A DNA stretch of 45,272 nucleotides from Escherichia phage HannyBb: the sequence record PP925841.1. The stretch is one strand, 5' to 3'. The number at the start of each line of letters is the position of its first letter. Within the stretch, counting starts at the first letter, position 1. Positions 33,811 to 34,560 of the stretch are shown one piece after another. The notes beneath the pieces were generated by a model. It searched no databases, had not been told where the DNA came from, and saw nothing but the letters and a program-made list of their open reading frames with translations. A program made the position numbers and the translations under genes.

Positions 33811-34309
33811 ATCTTGTTGAAATTAGAGGAAATCTTGCAGCCATGATATGGCTTAAAATAACGTTTGATTATTTTACCTGCTGTTTGTCCCTGGTTTAAA
33901 GTCGGTTGTCTGATTTGATTACGCGCAACTGACGCTTACGTATTGAAGTAACGAGCACGAAGACACATATTTATCAGTGCCTGTATACGTCAAGAGCAGG
34001 AGATTTATGTGCTGGTTCTCAAATGCACGCTGGCTATTGTGGCTGTAATGGCAATTTATTGTCTTGTTATTGTTCTTATGGATCACCTTTCTGATTGATT
34101 TCATATTGGCGAGGTAACGGTAGTTAAGTAGAATGGCTGCGGGTGCTTGAGGCTATCTGCCTCGGGCATGAACACCAACGGCAGATAGAGAAAAGCCCCA
34201 GTTAACATTACGCGTCCTGCAAGACGCTTAACATTAATCTGAGGCCAATTTCATGCTAGACACATGTAGGTTAGCCTCTTACGTGCCGAAAGGCAAGGAG
34301 AAGCAGGCT

Positions 34310-34465
34310 ATGAAGCAGCAAAAGGCGATGTTAATCGCCCTGATCGTCATCTGTTTAACCGTCATATTGACGGCACTGGTAACGAGGAAAGACCTCTGCG
34401 AGGTACGAATCCGAACCGGCCAGACGGAGGTCGCTGTCTTCACAGCTTACGAACCTGAGGAGTAA
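34310..34465 (+). CDS. hokD: Hok/Gef-family membrane toxin
   Basis: 51 aa, MKQQKAMLIALIVICLTVILTALVTRKDLCEVRIRTGQTEVAVFTAYEPEE, matching recalled HokD/RelF; AAGGAG Shine-Dalgarno; in-frame upstream extension from 34253. Confidence 0.8.
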   Translation: MKQQKAMLIALIVICLTVILTALVTRKDLCEVRIRTGQTEVAVFTAYEPEE

Positions 34466-34534
34466 GAGACCCGGCGAGGGAGAAATCCCTCGCCACCTCT
34501 GATGTGGCAGGCATCCTCAACGCACCCGCACTTA

Positions 34535-34560
34535 ACCCGCTTCGGCGGGTTTTTGTTTTT
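34535..34560 (+). terminator. Rho-independent terminator of the hok transcript
   Basis: ACCCGC-TTCG-GCGGGT followed by TTTTGTTTTT; an additional hairpin GGCGAGGGA-GAAA-TCCCTCGCC lies at 34473-34494. Confidence 0.55.

Follow-up and report, generated by a model that had tools for sequence, protein, structure and literature searches.

The stretch of DNA analysed here, which we call the window, comprises 45,272 nucleotides (nt) of Escherichia phage HannyBb (sequence record PP925841.1). Between positions 34106 and 34561 it carries what we consider, at a probability of about 0.9, to be a complete hok/sok-family type I toxin-antitoxin cassette of the hokD/hokW subtype, lodged in a lambdoid phage of the mEp460/Tritos kind. 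The cassette is already known in kind: hok/sok is a textbook system, there is earlier work on the subtype under the name hokW-sokW, and a sequence identical to this one is annotated as hokD, the K-12 version of which is truncated and of which the cassette described here is the intact form. Its toxin gene, recognized in an earlier note on this DNA, encodes a Hok/Gef protein of 51 amino acids (Pfam HOK_GEF PF01848, E = 1.9e-23, 82.2 bits against a cut-off of 22), and around it lie a promoter, a structured leader, an upstream mok reading frame, a 5'-3' closing helix, a terminator and a predicted antisense RNA.

Much of the evidence is comparative. Scanning one genome per species gave 62 related loci, of which the 43 non-redundant, full-length ones were aligned with the window to give 44 loci, from Escherichia, Shigella, Photorhabdus, Kluyvera, Citrobacter, Pantoea, Erwinia, Pseudocitrobacter and others. 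Over this alignment 85.7% of cells are paired in the minimum free-energy (MFE) structure of the window, against 36-44% with slid partners, and pairs with double changes number 44, where sliding gives 17-27. All shuffles stayed below these values, which are to be read knowing that the structure was taken from one of the aligned sequences and is somewhat favoured by this in the slide control. The elements of the cassette, with the Shine-Dalgarno sequence abbreviated as SD and the open reading frame as ORF, are as follows.

34106-34134 (+): promoter of the hok (mok-hok) mRNA, TTGGCG-17 nt-TAGAAT, from a sigma-70 consensus scan (9/12 matches)
34141-34556 (+): predicted full-length hok mRNA, ~416 nt, from 7 nt past the -10 to the U run of the terminator
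34141-34152 (+): tac (GGGUGCUUGAGG), three predicted partners: fbi (full-length RNA), 34159-34169 (nascent, metastable hairpin) and ucb (truncated RNA)
34153-34188 (+): leader hairpin CTATCTGCC / GGCAGATAG, in the MFE structure; helix 94.9% paired, two pairs changed on both sides
34194-34199 (+): ucb, or anti-SD, AGCCCC, covering the mok SD in the full-length fold and pairing with tac in the truncated RNA
34241-34244 (+): mok SD, GAGG, read from the sequence, 8 nt 5' of the mok ATG
34253-34465 (+): mok frame, 70 codons, from the ORF list; in frame with hok and reading as an N-terminally extended Hok
34274-34278 (+): dcb, GCCUC, complementary to the mok SD region GAGGC, placed by the Rfam alignment; 96% paired, no covariation
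34268-34296 (-): predicted Sok promoter, placed by positional homology; -35 TTGCCT (34296-34291), 17-nt spacer, -10 TAACCT (34273-34268)
34261 down to 34191 (-): predicted Sok RNA, ~71 nt, with 5' tail, terminator hairpin and U run; ends inferred
34310-34465 (+): hok toxin gene, 51 amino acids, with SD AAGGAG at 34295-34300
34473-34494 (+): hairpin GGCGAGGGA/TCCCTCGCC of the 3' untranslated region (UTR), in the MFE structure; helices 21-22 84-98% paired, five covarying pairs
34515-34527 (+): fbi (CCUCAACGCACCC), partner of tac, from the MFE fold and covariation
34534-34561 (+): intrinsic terminator of the hok mRNA, from a scan; 7-bp stem (34534-34551) with five G-C pairs, then a T run

The hok mRNA and its predicted antisense RNA

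The leader at 34141-34315 matches Rfam family sok (RF01794) at 115.3 bits against a gathering threshold of 59 and over the whole model (1-157 of 157), and the match begins at 34141, the same nucleotide at which the promoter predicts the mRNA to start. The -10 of this promoter is kept even in distant homologues, whose homology begins at 34127-34129. It should be observed of this match that, in spite of the family's designation as the sok antitoxin, it falls on the hok-sense strand and covers the 5' UTR of the hok mRNA up to the hok ATG. The family models the hok mRNA leader, so the strand of a match is not the strand of Sok, and automatic annotation from RF01794 would give Sok both the wrong strand and the wrong length and can mislead.

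Folded at full length, the hok mRNA reaches -173 kcal/mol (z = -8.1 against shuffles). In this MFE structure the 5' end pairs as tac with fbi, closing the fold, and the mok SD is paired with the GCCCC of ucb (34195-34199). The tac/fbi helix has 12 pairs, is 88% paired over the alignment and changes from U-A to C-G in nine loci, while the metastable tac hairpin is 96.4% paired, and the same tac column that takes part in the fbi pairing covaries in 11 loci; such 'coupled covariation' is reportedly a known pattern of the hok/sok family, from work of Gultyaev, Franch and Gerdes in 1997. The ucb pairing is 98% paired but invariant. As for the leader hairpin, its arms lie at 34153-34161 and 34180-34188, and a 9-bp inverted repeat is by itself within chance expectation for 45 kb, but the helix is present in the MFE structure and shows compensatory changes among the 44 loci, such as CTTTCTGCC/GGCAGAAAG and CTGTCTGCC/GGCAGACAG. 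The fbi element is a single-stranded stretch (CCTCAACGCACCC) between the two 3' hairpins, and it is at its end, 34527, that homology in distant genera stops.

When the mRNA is cut at 34512, so that fbi is removed, the MFE structure changes to the tac hairpin with 34159-34169 and the centroid structure to tac/ucb with partial SD/dcb pairing; alternative pairings of both tac and the mok SD are seen among the predicted folds. These predicted states match the ones described for the mRNA of plasmid R1, where the nascent RNA has a metastable hairpin, the full-length RNA is closed and the truncated RNA open (PMC9841398), and by analogy with R1 the hairpin at 34473-34494 is likely to be the protective 3' end of the processed mRNA (PMC9841398). 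Among other Rfam matches, one resembling isrK at 34474-34555 (+) in the hok 3' UTR (25.7 bits against 50, E = 0.0047) was set aside as probably a generic resemblance, and weak matches to ceN48, rsmX and fungal SRP were dismissed as chance or as generic likeness of a hairpin plus terminator.

The start of mok is well conserved: its GAGG is kept in the 44 loci and in the R1-type locus, and its ATG in 42 of the 44. The minus-strand sequence is CTCC-TTGCCT-(17 nt)-TAACCT-ACATGTG, which would start Sok about 7 nt past the -10, near 34261. The RNA so predicted has a single-stranded 5' tail of ~15 nt and a long hairpin (34246 to 34194) followed by UUUUCUCU, folds at -32.8 kcal/mol (z = -5.2), and is complementary to the mok SD and to the mok start codon at 34253. 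In 43 of the 44 loci both hexamers of the promoter are retained, as is its spacer of 17 nt, and the promoter aligns base for base with TTGCGC-17-TATCCT of the R1-type IncFII locus, a position that we take to be Psok of plasmid R1; the plasmid used for this comparison is of the IncFII type and encodes a Hok 100% identical to that of R1. The helix that serves as Sok terminator on one strand and as ucb-SD pairing on the other (helix 5) has six covarying pairs with almost no G-U, as would be expected if the helix must form on both strands.

The predicted length of ~71 nt agrees with that of sokW, which has 71 nt complementary to the hokW 5' UTR (PMC8621323). There, mutation of the sokW promoter abolished antitoxin action and unmasked toxicity, and sokW supplied in trans restored growth (PMC8621323). 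The existence and instability of Sok, its repression of Hok, 3' processing and cleavage of the duplex by RNase III have been shown for R1 (PMC9841398) and partly for hokW-sokW (PMC8621323), and it is by homology to these systems that we infer the transcripts, the 3' processing, the RNase III cleavage, the toxicity and the biological role in the phage studied here.

Much of this architecture had been anticipated in the earlier note. The in-frame extension that it saw upstream of hok is the mok frame, the tac/fbi pairing for which it suggested folding the mRNA does close the predicted structure, and the search that it proposed of the minus strand, for a promoter and a terminator giving an RNA of ~60-70 nt, leads to TTGCCT-17-TAACCT and a hairpin with U run. 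Other points needed adjusting. The structured leader stands, although its helix lies 2 nt to the left of the inverted repeat at 34155-34190; the 3' hairpins that were called fbi-like are there, but fbi itself lies unpaired between them; and the antisense RNA that was expected across the leader at 34200-34310 is predicted from promoter, terminator and Rfam match, though with its body at 34191-34261, the right part of the expected range being the Sok promoter and thus outside the RNA body.

One feature of the coding region deserves separate mention. UACG is the motif edited by TadA, and the Hok Tyr47 codon of the window lies within such a motif at 34448-34451, which is near-invariant in the 44 loci and present in the R1-type locus too. 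In K-12, a Tyr-to-Cys A-to-I edit at the conserved Tyr position is reported for hokC, hokD and hokE, with hokD ~6% edited (PMC12214031).

Relatives of the cassette and the K-12 hokD locus

The closest characterized relative is hokW-sokW of Sakai prophage 5 (Sp5, the Stx2 phage VT2-Sakai; Takada et al., 2021; PMC8621323), with 93.75% nucleotide identity over 34122-34537, a span of 416 nt that takes in the -10, the whole leader, mok, hok, the 3' hairpin and fbi. Both encode a 51-amino-acid toxin, have identical Sok promoter hexamers and are carried by a lambdoid prophage or phage, and for the Sp5 locus the toxin, the antitoxin RNA and promoter dependence have been shown by experiment (PMC8621323). 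As for differences, the Sok 5' tail / mok start region and the Sok loop carry a few substitutions, residue 20 of Hok is Leu in the window against Val in HokW, and the C-terminal residues differ. The Sp5 homology stops at 34537, before the terminator hairpin, and in Sp5 the cassette is located elsewhere in the genome.

With hok/sok (parB) of plasmid R1, the type system, the window shares the RF01794 model and the order and spacing of tac, leader hairpin, ucb, mok SD/ATG, dcb, Sok promoter, hok SD/ATG, UACG, 3' hairpin and fbi, with start positions of +113 (mok) and +170 (hok) where R1 has +116 and +174 (numbering of PMC9841398). The two sequences are alignable mainly at these regulatory elements, and HokW and R1 Hok are 44% identical as proteins (PMC8621323). 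In contrast to R1, the cassette is carried by a phage rather than a plasmid, has mok in frame with hok instead of +1, and combines a shorter leader hairpin with a longer Sok terminator hairpin. Chromosomal loci of the hokC/gef-mokC-sokC type in E. coli have the same elements at ~75% nucleotide identity overall, with an in-frame mok of 69-70 codons and a similar N-terminus (MLNTCR... against MLDTCR...); they differ in a Sok hairpin ~18 nt shorter, a -35 of TTGACC and their chromosomal rather than phage location.

The comparison with K-12 turns on what lies upstream of hok. The earlier note had remarked that the relB-relE pair accompanying hokD in K-12 Qin is missing here, and this is borne out, as a tblastn search of the window with K-12 RelB and RelE gave no match (best E = 1.6). 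At the DNA level the window is homologous to K-12 Qin over 34296-37179, with 92.6% identity (hokD, rem, ydfU, ydfT); the homology so begins 14 nt 5' of the hok ATG, at a breakpoint where K-12 carries the end of relE. K-12 hokD, also known as relF of the relBEF operon, resembles the window in the gene, fbi, the terminator and the downstream rem, ydfU and Q-like ydfT. It lacks the hok promoter, tac, leader hairpin, ucb, mok start and the whole Sok RNA with its -10, all of which the window has; in place of this upstream part it has relBE, which drives hokD, whereas the window has QueH and a 600-nt spacer.

Two points call for adjustment: the element that hosts the 'lone' hok is not Qin itself, and the lone form is no oddity. 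The 461-nt query stretch is 100% identical to a stretch annotated as hokD in RefSeq E. coli FDAARGOS_144, a match over at least 80% of the query was found in 3928 of 5426 complete E. coli genomes, many of which hold up to nine copies, and the relE-hokD junction occurs in 1166 of the 5426. These counts indicate that the lone form is the usual one. As judged from such comparisons, the arrangement without relBE is the ancestral and commoner one, and that of K-12 the rearranged one. An origin of the K-12 arrangement by integration of relBE into an ancestral, ~70-codon hokD has already been described (PMC6379469, which cites Ramisetty and Santhosh, 2016), and all hok loci of K-12 but hokB are said to have been inactivated by rearrangement or by insertion elements (PMC12214031).

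Some of the related loci call for comment of their own. Near-identical hok loci of the E. coli type (89-97% at the nucleotide level) were found on contigs labelled as a Veillonella parvula metagenome-assembled genome, Xanthomonas pisi and Acinetobacter idrijaensis (loci L010, L014 and L042), and another such locus in a record of an 'Actinobacillus phage' (hit H29); contamination, mis-binning or mislabelling is the likely cause in all four. Tandem hok-like units, two within ~650 nt, occur on some contigs of Photorhabdus and Pseudocitrobacter (L031, L043, L044, L048, L053). The account of how the hok loci of K-12 came to be inactivated reportedly originates with Pedersen and Gerdes in 1999.

The phage genome around the cassette

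The window looks like an apparently complete temperate phage genome of the mEp460/Tritos-like lambdoid type, in cos-linear order, and not like the defective Qin; it resembles the kind of phage genome from which Qin decayed. Its first 25 kb (1-25000) are 98.7% identical to Escherichia phage Tritos and ~95% identical to mEp460-type phages. The gene order in the left part is terminase, head, tail, int/xis, exo, dicB/DicF, repressor/cro and replication, and that in the right part QueH, hok/sok, rem, ydfU, Q, csp genes, lysis and, at the right end, a DUF1441-like ORF that stands where Tritos has the terminase small subunit. Full colinearity with positions 804792-850063 of E. coli FDAARGOS_144 was considered and rejected, as only 24075-37169 of the window is colinear and the left 24 kb are phage head and tail genes.

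Within this genome the place of hok is the early-right ('nin') region, with the replication genes on one side and Q on the other, and its strand is that of the cro-like, O-like, QueH, rem, ydfU and Q genes. The cassette behaves as a mosaic unit, for which the extent shared with the window is 33966-34554 in Tritos and mEp460_ev081 (where the neighbours are different), 34122-34537 in Sp5, 34127-34527 in distant genera and only from 34296 onwards in K-12. Just 5' of the hok promoter, and within the block 33966-34554, lies a hydrophobic ORF of 29 codons (MLVLKCTLAIVAVMAIYCLVIVLMDHLSD) at 34009-34098 (+), with a GTG start and an AGGAG SD 6 nt before it. It is open in mEp460_ev081 and Tritos with several synonymous changes, and it has no annotation in the records seen and no family match. 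This ORF, which accompanies the cassette in three phages, might be an additional partner of it.

Further upstream, the QueH epoxyqueuosine reductase gene (32918-33697, +; Pfam 2.7e-65) adjoins a truncated methyltransferase gene, and in related phages its place is taken by a different gene in the opposite orientation. A hairpin with an 11-bp stem, GAGCAGGTCAT...ATGACCTGCTC, lies 3' of QueH at 33779-33813 and may be a terminator. Elsewhere in the window, the small RNA DicF was found at 28885-28936 (-; Rfam 72.5 bits), adjoining dicB and ydfD and unannotated in the matching region of the RefSeq chromosome. Two matches to the cspA thermoregulator, at 39563-39955 (+; 158.8 bits) and 42454-42870 (+; 110.1 bits), lie over csp-like genes at 39724-39939 and 42609-42824, and a third csp-like ORF is at 39211-39423 (-).

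Mechanism, role and alternative explanations

The molecular mechanism of the cassette is well supported by homology and would run as follows. A weak promoter of its own would yield a stable mRNA of ~416 nt, in which the 5' tac would form a local hairpin during synthesis; in the finished RNA tac and fbi would then pair, with ucb masking the mok ribosome-binding site, and neither mok nor hok would be translated. Slow 3' trimming to the hairpin at 34473-34494 would strip off fbi and let tac move to ucb, thus freeing the mok ribosome-binding site, paired then only with dcb, and translation of mok would open the hok start to produce a 51-amino-acid Hok that harms the inner membrane. As long as the cassette is present and transcribed, a stronger promoter would make the unstable, ~71-nt Sok from the minus strand (34261 to 34191), which would pair with the mok start region of the trimmed mRNA and lead to its block and cleavage. 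Should Sok synthesis end, whether through loss of the element or through altered transcription on prophage induction, the stable mRNA pool would be translated. Candidate roles are retention of the prophage, help with lysis and release on induction, as for hokW-sokW (PMC8621323), and exclusion of other phages.

Several observations weigh against reading the locus as a complete and working hok/sok cassette. The NCBIfam search gave only sub-threshold matches for Hok, with the Hok subfamily model at 47.5 against a curated cut-off of 73 (and none for Rem, a 92-amino-acid ORF or the 29-amino-acid ORF). The Sok -10, TAACCT, has only 3/6 consensus positions, and a simple sigma-70 consensus scan found no minus-strand promoter in 34150-34320; as this poor fit is the reason for the empty scan, the promoter call is based on positional homology and conservation. 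In the truncated RNA, tac/ucb appears in the centroid structure only, the MFE giving the tac hairpin, and tac/ucb and SD/dcb, though complementary in 97% of cells, are invariant, so that covariation neither supports nor contradicts them. Finally, a preprint cites reports that wild-type chromosomal hokA, hokB and hokC were unable to mediate post-segregational killing (bioRxiv 10.1101/2025.08.07.668861), and activity of the cassette in the window is therefore not to be assumed.

The empty scan, together with the fact that the RefSeq record and the three phage records examined annotate coding sequences only and have neither Sok nor mok, might be taken to mean that hok is a constitutive or read-through phage gene without an antisense regulator. 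We regard this as highly improbable given the positionally conserved minus-strand promoter and terminator hairpin, the Rfam family match and the experimental demonstration of the homologous sokW RNA (PMC8621323). Nor do we expect the true product to be a 70-amino-acid long isoform of Hok that uses the upstream ATG of 34253-34465 as toxin start, with no regulatory mok. That frame is indeed open, in frame and equipped with its own GAGG, it stays in frame with hok in 28 of the 44 loci (68-72 codons), and VT2-Sakai has a 70-amino-acid ORF annotated as a gef homologue. In 14 loci, however, it is shifted (+1, R1-like) or stops after 19 codons, with hok intact; the conserved part of the extension coincides with the RNA elements dcb, Sok promoter and hok SD; and hok has a strong SD of its own. 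In R1 it is translation of mok up to the hok start that counts and not the Mok product (PMC9841398), a view with which the variable frame agrees and which counts against a conserved long isoform; such an isoform is thus an improbable explanation, if less so than a hok gene without Sok.

Two further alternatives accept the hok/sok mechanism and concern what it does. The one we take most seriously, while still leaning away from it, is that the cassette serves not in prophage addiction but as an early, membrane-damaging lysis helper coupled to induction through read-through against the Sok promoter. It is co-oriented within the early-right operon, between the replication genes and Q, and treatment of Sp5 with mitomycin C brought sokW RNA down and HokW up in a way that depended on RecA, while deletion of hokW-sokW altered lysis and halved phage release (PMC8621323). 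Yet the Sp5 cassette is placed elsewhere, so that work did not address read-through dependent on position, and in the window the cassette may be insulated by its own terminator and the hairpin at 33779-33813. It is less likely that the cassette is a structurally intact but silent relic, in which both RNAs are made while Hok is never meaningfully released, with no post-segregational killing and no effect on the phage. Toleration of hokD without any Sok in K-12 and the presence of up to nine copies in many E. coli would fit such a relic; the intact regulatory elements, the structural constraint visible across genera, the retention of the cassette in phages with differing neighbours and the Sp5 deletion phenotype do not.

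The complete hok/sok cassette thus remains our preferred reading, and one speculative extension of it, which we would rate as slightly less probable still than the silent relic, is that read-through on induction shuts the convergent Sok promoter and yields 5'-extended hok RNAs free of the tac/fbi lock, making the cassette a transcription-sensing timer that ties Hok release to induction. If true, this would add a positional mechanism to the 'lysis helper' idea put forward for hokW-sokW. More generally, the window shows the uninterrupted hokD locus that was lost from K-12 on insertion of relBE, and as it was through this insertion that K-12 lost the leader, the conclusion 'no Sok, no mok' drawn from K-12 hokD would not apply to most E. 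coli. As a discovery the cassette carries little weight; its apparently complete temperate phage would offer a convenient setting in which to test prophage-borne hok/sok.

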